A stretch of 64,000 nt of DNA from a virus, in IMG/VR virus record IMGVR_UViG_3300046514_000338, positions 10,937 to 74,936 of that record. The stretch is one strand, 5' to 3'. The number at the start of each line of letters is the position of its first letter. Within the stretch, counting starts at the first letter, position 1. Below, in pieces: positions 3,519 to 64,000 of the stretch. Made by a program: the position numbers and the translations under genes. Below the pieces are notes generated by a model. The model ran no database searches. It saw only the letters and a list, made by a program, of their open reading frames with translations, and was not told the origin of the DNA.

Positions 3519-4157
3519 TTACTTTGATTGTTTGAAAATTTGGTATAGTTCGGGTATGGAATAATCAGCCTTGTATTCTGGCAAATCGGTTTCCCACGTA
3601 TATTTATCGGCCGGGTCATCATATACTTCATGACAGTGTTTTTCGATAAACAATCCAAACTCTATTGCTTCCTCTTGGGTGGCTTCCTGAATAGTATTTT
3701 CATTTAGTAATTCAATAAGTTTTTTGGCGTTGTCTGCGTAATGATCTTCGTTCCAGTTTTGGTGTGAATATTTTTCATGGATAGCCAATAGCCCCCGTAA
3801 AACATAAATGATTTTTTCTTTATCAATATTTTGGGTGGCTTCCTTTGCTGGATAATATTTTGGAATAATCTTCGCCCCGCCGCATACATCGCAAATACCA
3901 AGACCACCACTCACCAAAGTAGTTCCTGTTGACCTAAACGGGAAGTAAACATCTCCAACGCCATTACATTTCGGACAAAGTTGATATTCGATTCCTTCCT
4001 TTACTGCGGGTTGGGATGAATTAAAATATTGCTCTATTTTTTTTATTTGAGGTTCGCTAAAATGTTCTCCGTTTACAAGGATAGTCAACTCCTGCCGCCC
4101 ATCTTGATTTCTTCCTTCAAAAACGTAAACCTTCGGTTCTCTTTCTGTATTGCTCAT
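3519..4157 (-). CDS. Hypothetical mosaic protein with DnaJ-like Zn finger
   Basis: CPKCNGVG...CDVCGGAK; start chosen at MSNTERE, just after the upstream stop. Confidence 0.55.
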   Translation of the reverse strand: MSNTEREPKVYVFEGRNQDGRQELTILVNGEHFSEPQIKKIEQYFNSSQPAVKEGIEYQLCPKCNGVGDVYFPFRSTGTTLVSGGLGICDVCGGAKIIPKYYPAKEATQNIDKEKIIYVLRGLLAIHEKYSHQNWNEDHYADNAKKLIELLNENTIQEATQEEAIEFGLFIEKHCHEVYDDPADKYTWETDLPEYKADYSIPELYQIFKQSK

Positions 4158-10227: not shown

Positions 10228-11028
10228 ATGGCTATAACCTGCCTTCATTCATTTAACGCTGGCGACCTTATTACCATCCTACCGGGGTTCCAAAACCTAT
10301 ATATGTCGCTTAAAAAAAAGACCACCATCTACCAAAGGCTAGGTCTTCCCGCTTATTATTATGATGATGCGCAGCACCCAGTACAACAGGACGGGAAGCA
10401 GGTATGTATGAATCAGCAAGTGTTCGATATGATGAAGCCGCTGCTAATGGTGCAACCATATATTCAATCATTTGAAGTGTGGGAAGGGCAGGAAGTTCAT
10501 TTCGATATTGATAAAACGCGGCAATCATCCCAAATACCATTACCGGGTGGAGATATTCATGCGTGGCCTACCCTTATTCATCCGCAACTAGCGTGTGACT
10601 TAAGTGTGCCTTGGATTCATGTTGGTGGGAAGCGGGAAGGGTTTGCTGATAAGATTGTTATTAACCGCACCACTCGCTACAGGAATCATTATATACAATA
10701 TTTTTTCCTAAAGGACTATGAAGACAAAATTGTTTTTATTGGCCTCGAACATGAGCATAAGGATTTTTGCGAACAATTCAAATTAAAAATTCCATTATTC
10801 ACCGCGACAAATTTTTTAGAATTAGCTGAAGTAATATCTTCGGCTAGATTTGGGATTTTTAATCAATCATTAGCGTGGCACTTAGCCGATGCGCAAAAAA
10901 CAAAACGAATACTAGAGGTATGTACTGTTTATCCCAACTCCTTTGCAACAGGGAAGGATGGGTATAATTTCACGCAGCAAGAGTCTTTAGAATATAGATT
11001 TCATGAACTTTTAAAACAGACCGAATGA
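10228..11028 (+). CDS. GT9-like (heptosyltransferase-fold) glycosyltransferase
   Basis: HS.NAGDL...LP N-terminal motif; FLELAEVI..A...IFNQS...HLA.A C-terminal motif. Confidence 0.7.
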   Translation: MAITCLHSFNAGDLITILPGFQNLYMSLKKKTTIYQRLGLPAYYYDDAQHPVQQDGKQVCMNQQVFDMMKPLLMVQPYIQSFEVWEGQEVHFDIDKTRQSSQIPLPGGDIHAWPTLIHPQLACDLSVPWIHVGGKREGFADKIVINRTTRYRNHYIQYFFLKDYEDKIVFIGLEHEHKDFCEQFKLKIPLFTATNFLELAEVISSARFGIFNQSLAWHLADAQKTKRILEVCTVYPNSFATGKDGYNFTQQESLEYRFHELLKQTE

Positions 11029-59603: not shown

Positions 59604-60835
59604 GCTTGTTTAAGTTGATAAGTTCCGTTAATAAGTTTTACATCGCTTTCATAATAATAATCACCGTCTACCTTTATCGCTCTCCAAGCGACAATATGAC
59701 TACCGTAATGCTCAGAATATACACAGTCATCAATTAAATAGTAGCAACTATCATAATCAGAATATACAACTTCGTCGTTTAAATAATACGTTCCGTCAAT
59801 TTCTGTGATACCTGAATCACCCACCCAATAATTTCTACCATGTACGTCAACAACGTTATCTATGTGAGTCGTATCACCTCTCCTTTCTCCGCGGTCAACC
59901 TGTGTCGCATTATCTTCGTCAATGTACAATCCGGTTATATCATCATAGATACCGCTGTCATTTTCTTCCCTCTCGCCGTTAGTGTTTTCATATTCATAGA
60001 TACAGCCATCAATTTGTCGATTTGTAAGAAAGCCATCTCCGCCATAACGGAATGTATCTATATAAGGGTAAGAGTCAAAATCTGTAGGGGTGTTAATCAC
60101 AAATGTCTTATTCCTGTAGGTTCCCTCATGGTCTATAAATTCAGTCCGGTTGTCGTAAGTTTTGTAATATCGTTTATACCAATATTTTTGCTGTTTAGCA
60201 TAATCAACGAATTTCTCGTACATAAAATCTTCAGTAACGTAAATTCTATCCATTAATGTAACAGAATCAGCTACCTTCCAGATAAGGGAGCGGCCACATA
60301 ATAACCCCTCTTTATTGGTTAAGGTTAAAATAGACAGTTGTTTGCATTCAGCGTAAATTTTGAATCTCCCGCTGTAGTCATTCATGCAGCTACCATTTAA
60401 ACTGGCATCTCCCTTCGCGCGGTCCATTTGATAAACCGCAGGAATAGCTTTGCAGGGTAGCAAAGTAAAGCGATAACCTTCGTCGATAAAATGTGATTTG
60501 TAAAAGTTAGTGAAACATTCAAAATCCGCGTCCTTCAAAAGTTTTTGCGCTCTTGGTGTAAACAATTTGCGGATAATTTTACCAGCTTTGCCGTTTTGCC
60601 GTCCTTCCCGGCTCCATTCTCCGTTATCGGAAATTAAATGAGGTTTACCTGCCGGTAAATAGCTGATAGTGCCATCAGACCTGAATGTGAGATAATTTAC
60701 CTCGTCTGTAGTTAACAGTAAGTCGTAAACGTTCCATTGGTGCAAATAAGCATGATACAATAGGCGTTGAACGGTTCCCTGAGAAGTTTGGAGGAAGTCT
60801 AAGAATGACTTGGAGTAGAAAATTTGCGTTTTCAT
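59600..60835 (-). CDS. Conserved phage protein with SCM/DRIY/PY.DT motifs and acidic Tyr-rich C-terminal repeats
   Basis: NGSCM, GR.LIW, MDRIY, YPYIDTF; coupled to the peptidase gene. Confidence 0.7.
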   Translation of the reverse strand: MKTQIFYSKSFLDFLQTSQGTVQRLLYHAYLHQWNVYDLLLTTDEVNYLTFRSDGTISYLPAGKPHLISDNGEWSREGRQNGKAGKIIRKLFTPRAQKLLKDADFECFTNFYKSHFIDEGYRFTLLPCKAIPAVYQMDRAKGDASLNGSCMNDYSGRFKIYAECKQLSILTLTNKEGLLCGRSLIWKVADSVTLMDRIYVTEDFMYEKFVDYAKQQKYWYKRYYKTYDNRTEFIDHEGTYRNKTFVINTPTDFDSYPYIDTFRYGGDGFLTNRQIDGCIYEYENTNGEREENDSGIYDDITGLYIDEDNATQVDRGERRGDTTHIDNVVDVHGRNYWVGDSGITEIDGTYYLNDEVVYSDYDSCYYLIDDCVYSEHYGSHIVAWRAIKVDGDYYYESDVKLINGTYQLKQA

Positions 60836-60888
60836 ACCTGACAGTTTTTGTTTTTTAAAAGTTTTGAAATTATTGACTTTGCTTTGCC

Positions 60889-61080
60889 TTAATTTGGCAC
60901 TACAAAATTTCGTTCAAAAAAAATAACTATTTTAAATTTTGCCTTGCCTCGTTTTATCTGATTATACACTGCTGATTCAACAATACTGTTGCTCGTTGCA
61001 TAATCTTTGACTAATACTGCATTTTTTGGTAGTTTGGTAACTACCGGATATTTCCCCTCATTTCGTTTCATTTTATTCAT
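60889..61080 (-). CDS. Small HTH-like DNA-binding protein
   Basis: VKDYA.......AVY.QIKRGK pattern. Confidence 0.5.
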   Translation of the reverse strand: MNKMKRNEGKYPVVTKLPKNAVLVKDYATSNSIVESAVYNQIKRGKAKFKIVIFFERNFVVPN

Positions 61081-61090
61081 GTTTATTTAT

Positions 61091-61121
61091 CAAATGTATG
61101 TTATAAGTTACAATTCACAAA
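61091..61121 (-). promoter_or_regulatory. Bacteroidota promoter overlapped by a TTACAATTCAC motif
   Basis: TTTG-19-TACATTTG. Confidence 0.6.
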
Positions 61122-61132
61122 ATTTATTTTAT

Positions 61133-61576
61133 TTATTTACCAATTCGGTTAAGCCACTGACTTATTTTTTTAAGGGTAGAATGGGACCGGCTATCATTTA
61201 ATTGTGGCTTACCATTCAATTTAATATACTCTGCTGCCTCTTTTAGAATATCGGTCAGTTCCTTATTAGCTTCTTTTAATGCTTCATTCTCTGCCTTTAG
61301 TTTGTCGTAGCCGTTCCAACATTCTACTATGCGGGCTGCTATCTTCTGCAATTCTCGCTGAGTATATTTAGTTTCTTCCTGCTGGGTTGCTTCTTTTTTA
61401 TTAAGTTCATCACACATTTTCTGAATTGTTTTTTTATTACCCCATTTAGTGCCGTAGTTGGGCGGCACATATCCCGCTTTATTGTCATAGACATAAAAAA
61501 CGCCATTCACGCCATAAGGCACATAGGTTTTACTTTCTTCCTGCATAGATTGAGGGGTATTAGTTTGCTGTTTCAT
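61133..61576 (-). CDS. Hypothetical protein
   Basis: A.RIV.C.N motif and coiled coil. Confidence 0.55.
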   Translation of the reverse strand: MKQQTNTPQSMQEESKTYVPYGVNGVFYVYDNKAGYVPPNYGTKWGNKKTIQKMCDELNKKEATQQEETKYTQRELQKIAARIVECWNGYDKLKAENEALKEANKELTDILKEAAEYIKLNGKPQLNDSRSHSTLKKISQWLNRIGK

Positions 61577-61595
61577 GTTGTTTTGTTTAAAGTTT

Positions 61596-61617
61596 AAAAA
61601 TAGGGGCATTTCACCCC
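61596..61617 (-). terminator. Hairpin / possible terminator
   Basis: GGGGTG-AAA-TGCCCC followed by TATTTTT. Confidence 0.5.
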
Positions 61618-61630
61618 GTTAGTTCTGTCG

Positions 61631-61879
61631 TTACTTACTCCTGTAATAGTCCTTAACCATTGCATTGAGTTCTTTTTTTATCTCCCTTGCTTTATCTCCC
61701 TTCCATGTTTGCGCATTTGCTAAAAAATAACTGACTATTGTACTTGCCGGGTCAGCTATGTACATTGAGTTAATATCGCTCAATGTTTGCATTGCATCAA
61801 GATAGGGGACTGCACCAAAATATGGCTTTTTCCAGTCCTGCTTAATGTCGTTTGCAATAACGTTCAATTGCCTTGTCAT
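61631..61879 (-). CDS. Conserved phage early protein of unknown function
   Basis: DW.KPYFGAVPYL.AM...YFL.NA..W.G..AR.IK.EL. Confidence 0.7.
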   Translation of the reverse strand: MTRQLNVIANDIKQDWKKPYFGAVPYLDAMQTLSDINSMYIADPASTIVSYFLANAQTWKGDKAREIKKELNAMVKDYYRSK

Positions 61880-61969
61880 TTGTTTATAGTTTTGAAGTTA
61901 AAAAATTGAAATCAGACACAATGTAACAAGTTAATTACAATTCACCAAATAATGTTTGTTAAGAAAGTG

Positions 61970-62197
61970 TTAACTGTGCTCCAATTCGTTGTTAACCGGG
62001 TTAAAAAATCTGATACTTTGTCCCATTACTTTACCCGTCCTTAAGTCTTTTATTGGTGCAATAATTTTGTACCTGCCGTCATGCTGTTTATAAACTTTAA
62101 AATCTGCCACTCTTTGTCCAAAAAATTTCATTGTTTTAGGAACAAAGAAATAGGGCGCTGTTTCCTGCGTTAGTCTTTTAATGTCATAGATAGTCAT
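61970..62197 (-). CDS. Conserved phage early protein of unknown function
   Basis: YFF...TMKFFGQ motif. Confidence 0.65.
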   Translation of the reverse strand: MTIYDIKRLTQETAPYFFVPKTMKFFGQRVADFKVYKQHDGRYKIIAPIKDLRTGKVMGQSIRFFNPVNNELEHS

Positions 62198-62228
62198 AAA
62201 ATTATAGTTTTAAGTTATTAATTTGTTT

Positions 62229-62280
62229 GGTTAATACAGGATATTAAAATATCCCGTTTCGCTTTGCTCATCAGTTAACC
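62229..62280 (-). ncRNA. Type I hammerhead ribozyme HH1 (minimal stem II)
   Basis: GGUUAA CUGAUGA GC-AAA-GC GAAA CGGGAUAU-UUUA-AUAUCCUG UA^ UUAACC; predicted cut at 62235/62234. Confidence 0.8.
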
Positions 62281-62577
62281 TTAATAATATTTCCTGCAAA
62301 ACTCTTTACCACCTGTTACATATTTGCCTTGTTCAGGATATTCCGGTTTACCAGCGCCTTCCCATTGTTTACAGCCATCTTTTAACCAATGGATATATTG
62401 AAATCCGCGATAATTCCCAGACTGATGTAAAACATATTCAATCGAATGACACAAGGCTTCACAAACCGCATTATATTTGTCAGGAAAATTTATTATTTCA
62501 TGGCTATTATATGCCGATTCAAGTCTAGCGTTAATTTCGTCTTTAAATTTTTTGACGTTAAATGTTTTAGTTGCCAT
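62281..62577 (-). CDS. Conserved phage early protein (between HH2 and HH1)
   Basis: IE.VLH.SGNY.GF.Y motif. Confidence 0.7.
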   Translation of the reverse strand: MATKTFNVKKFKDEINARLESAYNSHEIINFPDKYNAVCEALCHSIEYVLHQSGNYRGFQYIHWLKDGCKQWEGAGKPEYPEQGKYVTGGKEFCRKYY

Positions 62578-62591
62578 AATTTGTATTTTTT

Positions 62592-62651
62592 GGTTAATAC
62601 CTGTCTATAAATATAGACGGGTTTCGAGTAGTTAACTCTCATCAGTTAACC
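62592..62651 (-). ncRNA. Type I hammerhead ribozyme HH2
   Basis: GGUUAA CUGAUGA GAGU-UAACU-ACUC GAAA CCCGUCUAU-AUUU-AUAGACAGG UA^ UUAACC; predicted cut at 62598/62597. Confidence 0.9.
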
Positions 62652-62661
62652 TTTGTTATCA

Positions 62662-63018
62662 TTATAAAATACTTGTTTGGCTAAACTTTTTCGGTTGCAT
62701 CATTGAGCCTATCTCTTTATCTTCCCAGTTGCCGTTATTTACGTCAATCTTTTTGCCTAGTGAACGTACAAAGATTGTCGGCCTAATTGAAAACAAGGCA
62801 TCGAAAAATTCTCCGTGAACGTGCCAGCTAGCCTTAGGCAATCGCCTTCCGGAAAATGAATATCTTGCTCCCGGTTGCCCGCTCTTAGCCTGTAGCGTAA
62901 ATATTACGCGGCCTGCCGTCTTTTGTTCAATCCTGTTAAATGAGATATTGCCGGCGTATTTGGCATTAATAACTTTTAATGCTTGATTCAATTCGCTGAT
63001 AGTTGCATTAGTTGTCAT
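62662..63018 (-). CDS. Conserved phage early protein (between HH3 and HH2)
   Basis: GAR.S.SGRR...A.WH.HG.F..ALF motif. Confidence 0.7.
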   Translation of the reverse strand: MTTNATISELNQALKVINAKYAGNISFNRIEQKTAGRVIFTLQAKSGQPGARYSFSGRRLPKASWHVHGEFFDALFSIRPTIFVRSLGKKIDVNNGNWEDKEIGSMMQPKKFSQTSIL

Positions 63019-63034
63019 AATTTTTGTTTTTTTT

Positions 63035-63096
63035 GGTTAATACCTGCGGTTTATCATTTCGCAGGTTTCGGGCATTCAGCCGCTCTTCAGTTAACC
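63035..63096 (-). ncRNA. Type I hammerhead ribozyme HH3
   Basis: GGUUAA CUGAAGA G(C)GGC-UGAAU-GCCC GAAA CCUGCG-11 nt-CGCAGG UA^ UUAACC; predicted cut at 63041/63040. Confidence 0.88.
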
Positions 63097-63102
63097 TTTC
63101 TT

Positions 63103-63321
63103 TTAAATATTGCCTAGATATTGTTGATAGGCCGCTGATTCCTTCCAAAACGTTTCATAATCGTTGCCATATTGCGAAAGTGCTATTTTCATTATCTCCT
63201 CATCGCCTTCAAAAATTACCAAACTTTTTTCCCAAATTGGGGTCACGTTTAAACATTTCGGAACCGTGTTAAAAAATTTGATACTACGGGCATCTAAAGA
63301 AGAAAATTTAATCGTTGTCAT
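63103..63321 (-). CDS. Hypothetical protein
   Basis: 72 aa ORF with an AT-rich leader; ends 6 nt before HH3. Confidence 0.55.
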   Translation of the reverse strand: MTTIKFSSLDARSIKFFNTVPKCLNVTPIWEKSLVIFEGDEEIMKIALSQYGNDYETFWKESAAYQQYLGNI

Positions 63322-63356
63322 TTTGATAGTTTTTTAAAGTGAATGAATGAAGTTTG

Positions 63357-63382
63357 ATAAAAGAGGGGAAAGTTCCCCTCTT
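63357..63382 (-). terminator. Hairpin / terminator
   Basis: AAGAGGGGA-ACTT-TCCCCTCTT followed by TTAT. Confidence 0.6.
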
Positions 63383-63388
63383 CCGTTG

Positions 63389-63628
63389 TCATCTGTTAAC
63401 CCGTTTTGCAATCAGTTCTATCACTGGTGTGCAACCTATGCCGTGAATCATTGCGCCGAAACCGTTTAGAGCAATATTCACTAAGTGGAAATTAGCGTGA
63501 ATTTCTGACACGCAGACTCCCAGAGGCATGAAGACAAAAACACCAATTAAGACACGGTGCAAAATTGTGTGCTTACTTCCCAATAAATGAGAGCAAATCA
63601 CACGGGGCAAATCAAAGAATTTTTTCAT
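63389..63628 (-). CDS. Small membrane protein
   Basis: HL.G..H...HR..G...M..GV...G..IHGIG.TP; two TM helices. Confidence 0.6.
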   Translation of the reverse strand: MKKFFDLPRVICSHLLGSKHTILHRVLIGVFVFMPLGVCVSEIHANFHLVNIALNGFGAMIHGIGCTPVIELIAKRVNR

Positions 63629-63633
63629 AAGGA

Positions 63634-63786
63634 CTAAAATTTTTGGTTATCGTAAGGGGTTCTAATAACTACCAATAAAATTGGTACCATAGCAACAACG
63701 AGAGCCACAAGGCAGAACGTTGAAGGAAGGAAGAACGCCGAAGTGATAAGCAAAACTGTGATAAGATACAAGTCACAAGTACGCAT
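63634..63786 (-). CDS. Small hydrophobic protein
   Basis: 50 aa, two TM helices, first gene after a promoter. Confidence 0.4.
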   Translation of the reverse strand: MRTCDLYLITVLLITSAFFLPSTFCLVALVVAMVPILLVVIRTPYDNQKF

Positions 63787-63825
63787 ACAGTAAGATTTTA
63801 AAATGAATAAATAACGATAACAGGA

Positions 63826-63860
63826 CAAATGTAAGTTACAAGTCACAAGAAACAATCAAA
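63826..63860 (-). promoter_or_regulatory. Early promoter heading the hammerhead-containing operon
   Basis: TACATTTG -7 box at 63826-63833; TTACAAGTCAC motif in the spacer. Confidence 0.55.
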
Positions 63861-64000
63861 GGTTGCACAAACAACCGAAATGAAAACACCTAACTATGTG
63901 ATTCACATCTCACAAAACATGTATGAATTGTAAAAAAATCTTTGCCGGGTTCCAATGTTGTCGCAAAACACAACACACTAGGGCGCGGCCAATATCTCCC

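Follow-up and report, generated by a model that had tools for sequence, protein, structure and literature searches.

Three probable type I hammerhead ribozymes in successive intergenic spacers of a small-gene array in a soil and rhizosphere phage contig

The IMG/VR virus record IMGVR_UViG_3300046514_000338 is a phage contig of 74,936 bp with a CheckV completeness of 64%, and its final 64 kb (64,000 nucleotides (nt), positions 10,937 to 74,936 of the record), hereafter the window, contain three hammerhead elements, here called HH1, HH2 and HH3, that are probably self-cleaving ribozymes. The contig encodes a GroEL-type chaperonin, a portal, a large terminase and virion/structural proteins, and the phage stretch is present in soil and rhizosphere metagenome DNA runs, and at positions 61600-63700 in no RNA run listed, with DNA contigs from four such runs over positions 61900-63450 being identical save one C>A at 61981. 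The minus strand carries every gene at 61.6-63.7 kb and, from about 63.86 kb to 56.5 kb, every sizeable open reading frame (ORF), and on this strand three consecutive spacers contain the same order of parts, namely GGUUAA, CUGANGA, a stem II hairpin, GAAA, a stem III hairpin, U-A and UUAACC. All three copies thus have the layout of a complete type I hammerhead, in which loops cap stems II and III and stem I is left open. The three share one orientation, are 363 and 443 nt apart, and each sits between two minus-strand ORFs of the phage contig, whose lengths are given in amino acids (aa):

63096..63035, minus strand: hammerhead HH3, predicted cut at 63041/63040; begins 6 nt past the stop codon, cut-to-ATG distance 22 nt.
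62651..62592, minus strand: hammerhead HH2, predicted cut at 62598/62597; begins 10 nt past the stop codon, cut-to-ATG distance 20 nt.
62280..62229, minus strand: hammerhead HH1, predicted cut at 62235/62234; begins 0 nt past the stop codon (62281-62283), cut-to-ATG distance 37 nt.
63103..63321, minus strand: 72-aa ORF upstream of HH3; no Pfam or PHROG match.
62662..63018, minus strand: 118-aa ORF between HH3 and HH2; predicted excised RNA of 443 nt (63040..62598).
62281..62577, minus strand: 98-aa ORF between HH2 and HH1; predicted excised RNA of 363 nt (62597..62235).
61970..62197, minus strand: 75-aa ORF downstream of HH1; weak DUF7447 match below the cut-off.

The initial annotation of this DNA had reported full hammerheads on the coding strand of three successive spacers, and they can indeed be read directly at the coordinates above. 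Its predicted cuts proved correct when recomputed, and its distances (ribozyme start 0-10 nt after a stop codon, cut 20-37 nt before the next start) agree with the measured values of 6, 10 and 0 nt and of 22, 20 and 37 nt. Searches of the flanked proteins against Pfam, PHROGs and a protein atlas gave no usable function; the match of the 75-aa protein to DUF7447 (E 4.7e-4) reached 20.7 bits, below the Pfam cut-off of 24.1. The 98-aa protein had no relatives among viral contigs, and a search of cultured-phage DNA with window positions 60000-64000 gave no match. The description "host-takeover-type genes" given to this array earlier is thus a guess, because the flanked proteins have no recognisable function.

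All nucleotides of the catalytic core are intact in the three copies. The core strand C3 U4 G5 A6 N7 G8 A9 reads CUGAAGA in HH3 and CUGAUGA in HH2 and HH1, while G12 A13 A14 and the A15.1-U16.1 pair are present in 3/3 copies (as GAAA and as the U two positions ahead of stem I). The cleavage triplet is GUA throughout, so that H17 is A and satisfies the NUH rule, and the core-adjacent pairs are likewise the same in 3/3 copies (10.1-11.1 G-C, 1.1-2.1 U-A and 15.2-16.2 C-G). The parts of each copy are placed as follows:

HH3, minus strand: stem I 63096-63091 with 63040-63035; CUGAAGA 63090-63084; stem II 63083-63070; GAAA 63069-63066; stem III 63065-63043.
HH2, minus strand: stem I 62651-62646 with 62597-62592; CUGAUGA 62645-62639; stem II 62638-62626; GAAA 62625-62622; stem III 62621-62600.
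HH1, minus strand: stem I 62280-62275 with 62234-62229; CUGAUGA 62274-62268; stem II 62267-62261; GAAA 62260-62257; stem III 62256-62237.

Stem II of HH3 carries a bulged C and a UGAAU loop, that of HH2 has 4 bp and a UAACU loop, and that of HH1 is minimal, with 2 bp closed by an AAA loop (GC-AAA-GC); stem III of HH2 includes one C/A mismatch. The predicted cuts fall after A63041, A62598 and A62235 in HH3, HH2 and HH1, respectively. The hammerhead fold is the minimum-free-energy fold of HH1 and lies at most 0.2 kcal/mol from it in HH3.

Chance is a poor explanation for such a series. A strict hammerhead pattern matched three times in the window and 0 times in 100 shuffles, and a descriptor allowing no bulge or mismatch matched HH1 only. 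A covariance model, R1, was built from 34 look-alike elements, all from other phage contigs, and used to scan the window with filters off; it scored HH2 at 59.2 bits (E 2.1e-13), HH3 at 54.0 bits (E 4.8e-12) and HH1 at 49.3 bits (E 9e-11), with the next-best match in the window at 19 bits. Across the whole 74.9-kb contig, R1 gave no further strong match beyond HH1-HH3.

At least 120 IMG/VR phage contigs contain the exact motif of stem I, core, GAAA, UA and stem I, and the three copies belong to the subfamily so defined. The search pattern left stems II and III free, and the family counts below come from loci among these contigs that were listed, where R1 found 149 + 31 copies. Pairing in stems II and III amounts to 93-99% in the alignment of 34 independent sequences, and to 98.2% of cells overall, with 122 double-change cells against 33 in shuffles; when the partner was slid by 1-3 columns as a control, pairing fell to 28-42%. 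The alignment of 149 hits, itself model-fitted, gave the same pairing picture, and for 102 of 118 distinct family sequences the hammerhead is also the predicted fold of lowest free energy. The earlier view that stems II and III differ among the copies yet stay paired, which would reflect selection on structure, is therefore borne out by covariation in both alignments.

The unpaired core varies solely at N7 (U 86, C 42, A 13, G 8) and at H17 (A or C) among the 149 hits. GAAA is kept in 148 of them, and the U and H17 positions read UA or UC in 148, with one low-scoring hit reading AA. The hammerhead consensus leaves exactly N7 and H17 free (consensus and screening rules of Perreault et al. 2011, PMC3088659). 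Since only these consensus-free positions vary, the pattern is hard to explain without selection for catalysis.

Stem I is far less variable than its neighbours, being GGUUAA/UUAACC in about 92-95% of copies, including copies outside the pattern selection, and identical in HH1-HH3. The bases flanking it are conserved as well (A(-1) 94%, A(+1) 93%, A(+2) 87%). In its modal form, found in 75 of 141 copies, stem II has 4 bp closed by the loop UNANU. Copies with this loop always carry A(-1) and A(+1) (100%), whereas the figure for the others is 86-88%; a loop of this type occurs in HH2 and HH3 and is absent from HH1. This linkage hints that loop II may dock on the end of stem I, which would explain the invariance of stem I; fast hammerhead cleavage at physiological Mg2+ depends on a tertiary contact between stems I and II. 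Rare stem I variants are compensatory within one ribozyme and occur in arrays beside canonical copies, a pattern that shows selection for cis pairing and lends no support to interchangeable ends.

A survey of related phages for serial intergenic hammerheads, which the initial annotation had proposed, did find them: arrays of 3 to 7 copies, with a spacing of 230-1600 nt, are present in 12 other loci among those listed. At locus L024, seven family hammerheads lie within about 5 kb of one phage contig (6226-11139, minus strand), two of them with the compensatory stem I GAUUAA/UUAAUC. At locus L068 (6669-6747, plus strand), a type-P3 twister ribozyme (RF03154, 40.3 bits, gathering score 39.9) was found about 400 nt downstream of a family hammerhead; therefore, at least one array mixes ribozyme classes.

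The position of the ribozymes relative to genes is also constrained across the family. ORFs of at least 50 aa flank the element on both sides in the ribozyme orientation in 100 of 142 cases, compared with 2 of 142 in the antisense control, and these flanking ORFs are small (median 98 and 75 aa). The upstream stop codon lies within the ribozyme in 82 of 139 junctions (59%), either as the UAA of GGUUAA (57) or as the UGA of CUGA (25). The downstream ATG follows 12-18 nt past the last stem I base, which is 18-24 nt past the cut, in 84 of 114 cases, and this narrow cut-to-AUG spacing is the strongest hint that the cut may be tuned to translation initiation. The family leaders consist of 61% A and 4% G, and a Shine-Dalgarno-like tetramer occurs in just 7 of 119. 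Such an A-rich composition without Shine-Dalgarno sequences fits the Shine-Dalgarno-independent initiation of Bacteroidota. Terminase matches among cultured phages were to Bacteroidota phages only (Flavobacterium, Cellulophaga, Tenacibaculum and Maribacter, at about 25% identity), and the family has few matches in bacterial genomes, several of which are in Chitinophagaceae and Sphingobacteriaceae. The phage host probably belongs to Bacteroidota, because leader composition, terminase relatives and bacterial-genome matches agree.

Two adjacent family copies were found in the complete chromosome of Paraflavitalea speifideaquila BL16E (L139:3832-3898 and 3995-4073, minus strand; 52.3 and 47.6 bits), a cultured Chitinophagaceae strain, presumably within a prophage. 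A related type I hammerhead-like element scoring 25.9 bits is present in the cultured Flavobacterium phage vB_FspP_elemoF_6-3D (L147:1501-1558, minus strand, corresponding to NC_055853.1 16045-16102), where it has stem I GGCAAA/UUUGUC, a GUC site and loop II UUAAU and is surrounded by small minus-strand ORFs in an array. The 35-aa ORF "gp66", which has been annotated across this element on the plus strand, is probably spurious. The relatives in BL16E and in the Flavobacterium phage open a way to bench tests.

Around the array, a promoter-like repeat (TTTG, TGAATTGTAA, TAcaTTTG) occurs on the minus strand at four sites, 61091-61121, about 61920-61950, 63766-63777 and 63836-63847, which places copies upstream of a 79-aa gene and directly past the last ribozyme-led gene and none in the three ribozyme spacers:

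63628..63389, minus strand: 79-aa gene downstream of the repeats at 63766-63777 and 63836-63847.
61920..61950, minus strand: promoter-like repeat (TTTG, GTGAATTGTAA, TAcaTTGT) in the spacer after the last ribozyme-led gene.

The repeat resembles the Bacteroidota -33/-7 consensus and is here treated as a putative promoter. Because the repeats bracket the genes and are absent from the ribozyme spacers, the array fits as part of a putative single unit of five small genes. Promoter-like repeats on both sides are all that bears on the expression of this unit, and the term "early operon" used in the initial annotation goes beyond the evidence.

Homologues of the flanked genes indicate how stable the junctions may be. 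The 75-aa gene has homologues with 52-63% identity in three contigs (L053, L024 and L036). In L053 and L024, the same upstream spacer is occupied by a hammerhead that shares stem I and the core, differs in stems II and III and has a GUC site, and the corresponding spacer of L036 contains a plain hairpin only. For the 118-aa gene, two distant homologues were found (L124 and L125, 33-42% identity), and R1 detected no hammerhead in these two loci, the homologues being too distant to count for or against. The ribozyme therefore tends to persist at a junction without being tied to particular genes.

Given the intact cores, the covariation and the constrained position, we regard the three elements, at a probability of about 0.8, as genuine type I hammerhead self-cleaving ribozymes within one leftward message running from about 63.8 to about 61.96 kb, and this long message would probably be cut into single-gene pieces. 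Each ribozyme would fold once its own 3' strand of stem I is transcribed and would cut after A17 of GUA, at 63041/63040, 62598/62597 and 62235/62234. Stem I, being short (6 bp) and AU-rich, would then come apart and release the products. The upstream piece would end in the compact structure of stems II and III with a 2',3'-cyclic phosphate, and the downstream piece would carry a 5'-OH at the start of an A-rich leader that is short, unstructured and free of any Shine-Dalgarno sequence (20-37 nt here, 18-24 nt in most family members). Both new ends should slow decay, as may be reasoned by analogy from the behaviour of RNase E and 3' exonucleases in E. coli, and the leader, freed of the folded ribozyme, would leave the start region accessible. 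The outcome could be single-gene messages with stability and translation independent of their neighbours. Of the initial claim that the phage chops its message into single-gene mRNAs without protein, the motif, its position, its conservation and its covariation hold up, and we infer cleavage and the downstream effects from them. The family rules (fixed stem I, built-in stops, AUG spacing and A-rich leaders) make this mRNA-punctuation idea testable.

Several observations weigh against this interpretation. Regarding the unit, the evidence for one transcript consists of the promoter-like repeats, and a terminator-like hairpin (63378..63366) lies between the upstream repeats and the first ribozyme-led gene. 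Regarding HH2, a competing hairpin (GGUUAACU/AGUUAACU) is predicted by the nearest-neighbour model at -17.3 kcal/mol, against -14.7 kcal/mol for the hammerhead fold, and this gap of 2.6 kcal/mol is the largest among 118 family members, making HH2 the worst misfolding case. Here GUUAAC in stem II pairs with the 5' strand of stem I to give an 8-bp hairpin (62626-62651, minus strand), which would form before the hammerhead during transcription. This predicted alternative fold is a caveat and no refutation, since the tertiary interactions that stabilise the hammerhead core do not enter into nearest-neighbour energies. Regarding HH1, its rate at physiological Mg2+ may be low, because it has a 2-bp stem II and is without the usual loop II of the family.

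Rfam also speaks against the elements at first sight. The search with Rfam hammerhead models that the initial annotation had recommended, run on the window with Rfam 15, gave nothing at gathering thresholds and sub-threshold matches only. Under permissive settings, RF03152 (RAGATH-1 hammerhead) matched HH2 with 25.1 bits against a gathering score of 56.3, and RF02275 matched HH1 with 13 bits against 52, the rest being chance snoRNA-like matches; RF00163 (Hammerhead type I) had no match in the window at E up to 10. At gathering scores, however, Rfam also detects 0 of about 38 subfamily copies in nine other loci, and because the whole subfamily is missed there, the Rfam result is a gap in model coverage and no weakness of the elements. 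Automatic annotation will go on missing the subfamily as long as it is invisible to Rfam 15 at its cut-offs.

Among other explanations, the one that survives best, although it is unlikely, is that the elements act mainly as boundary modules of shufflable gene cassettes, with microhomology moving small accessory genes and ribozyme activity being secondary or hitch-hiking. The near-invariant boundaries GGTTAACTGANGA and GTMTTAACCAA, which recur in at least 120 otherwise unrelated phage contigs and flank small non-homologous ORFs (median 75-98 aa), would suit such shuffling, as would the location of both homologues of the 118-aa gene that were found (L124 and L125) in loci without a family hammerhead and the lack of a hammerhead at one of the three homologues of the 75-aa gene. 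Nevertheless, microhomology would not require that every catalytic nucleotide be fixed while exactly N7 and H17 are free, and it would call for no compensatory change in stem II or stem III; cassette boundaries and active ribozymes are compatible rather than exclusive.

It is less probable still that the pieces are cut and rejoined, with the shared stem I letting a 5'-OH UUAACC end pair with the 3' ribozyme of its own or another piece, and with religation by the hammerhead or by host RtcB yielding circular or rearranged mRNAs. Such pairing would be allowed by a stem I that has one and the same sequence throughout HH1-HH3 and in about 92-95% of the family, and RtcB acts on 2',3'-cyclic phosphate and 5'-OH ends such as hammerheads leave. 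Neither a phage-encoded RtcB nor an RNA ligase was found in the 75-kb contig, which is 64% complete. Perreault et al. 2011 raised this possibility, but they looked for spliced or circular products and found none (PMC3088659). In addition, the rare stem I variants are compensatory within a single ribozyme beside canonical copies, as cis pairing predicts, and simpler causes of stem I invariance are available in a possible loop II contact, the built-in stops and the leader sequence.

An equally slight chance attaches to the elements being non-catalytic structured spacers, hammerhead-like or decayed, that serve as stabilisers, terminators or protein-binding sites. The preference of HH2 for another fold in silico, the minimal stem II of HH1 and the lack of a gathering-score Rfam match could all be read in this way, and decay does seem to occur in the array, since the next spacer upstream contains a degenerate copy whose core is altered and whose stem III resembles a terminator:

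63356..63401, minus strand: possible degenerate fourth copy in the next spacer upstream; R1 17.4 bits, E 0.028.

This element has the hammerhead layout with U4 changed to A (CAGAUGA) and the A15.1-U16.1 pair changed to G-C (GAAG), and its stem III and U-run resemble an intrinsic terminator, the terminator-like call being the 63378..63366 hairpin mentioned above; it may be a decayed fourth ribozyme, which is suggestive only. In HH1-HH3, by comparison, all catalytic nucleotides are intact (3/3), a structure-only role would not fix an unpaired core over 149 copies, and a 2-bp stem II is common in active natural hammerheads (PMC3088659). The TTAAC direct repeats were also considered as target-site duplications of an inserted element, which was rejected because any stem with the palindrome TTAA yields such repeats.

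Self-cleaving hammerheads within one message thus remain the preferred reading, and their arrangement has close precedents. According to Perreault et al. [quoted passage not shown] These authors proposed that long phage transcripts are processed into single-gene mRNAs, and they observed cleavage in vitro with three tandem arrangements and also in vivo with the Agrobacterium tumefaciens triple (PMC3088659). A 2017 review (de la Pena et al., PMC6155905) described hammerheads that lie close together, flank small non-conserved ORFs and are persistently phage-linked, and it treated the role of bacterial and phage hammerheads as a still open question. The array analysed here shares with the prophage clusters the same-orientation hammerheads in successive spacers, the small genes of unknown or variable function and the inferred processing into single-gene mRNAs. 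It differs in belonging to an uncultured soil/rhizosphere phage with a probable Bacteroidota host, and in that all copies are type I and of one subfamily with a near-invariant stem I, conserved flanking A and modal loop II UNANU. The novelty implied by the initial annotation was overstated, as triple hammerheads around single phage genes have been in the literature since 2011, with tests both in vitro and in vivo (PMC3088659). Because the same layout was described and tested there, the locus is a clean new example of a layout known in phages since 2011, and no new kind of system or principle. The stem I and core motif and the stop-cut-start subfamily were not found in open full texts or in the supplements of Perreault et al. 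2011, and may sit in published alignments.

Among hammerhead families, the elements agree with RF03152 (RAGATH-1) and RF00163 in their type I topology, in the core and in combining a long stem III with a short stem II. HH2 aligns with RF03152 across the entire hammerhead part, but the conserved upstream hairpin of that family is not formed here, all four of its pairs being non-pairs, and with 25.1 bits below the threshold of 56.3 the element falls outside RF03152. In the haloviruses HF1 and HF2, a hammerhead variant lies 13 nt upstream of the first early gene, and a mapped transcript 5' end is at most 3 nt from the cleavage site (PMC3088659); a viral hammerhead at a fixed short distance upstream of a start codon is thus common to both systems, which differ in that the haloviral element belongs to an archaeal virus, is a single copy with a variant core and stands at the operon head instead of between genes. 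In fungal and plant RNA viruses, type I hammerheads in untranslated or intergenic regions support translation initiation, and the cut sets the 5' end of the translated RNA (PMC13725137). These resemble the phage elements in being type I, in having a helix III that is long and a helix II that is short, and in lying a few nt upstream of an ORF start, whereas they belong to eukaryotic RNA viruses with another translation apparatus, and the link to translation reported there is not known for phages. In synthetic insulators such as RiboJ, a hammerhead upstream of the coding sequence strips off the upstream RNA context and decouples expression. Such parts are engineered and single, whereas the phage arrangement is natural, serial and conserved over many phages.

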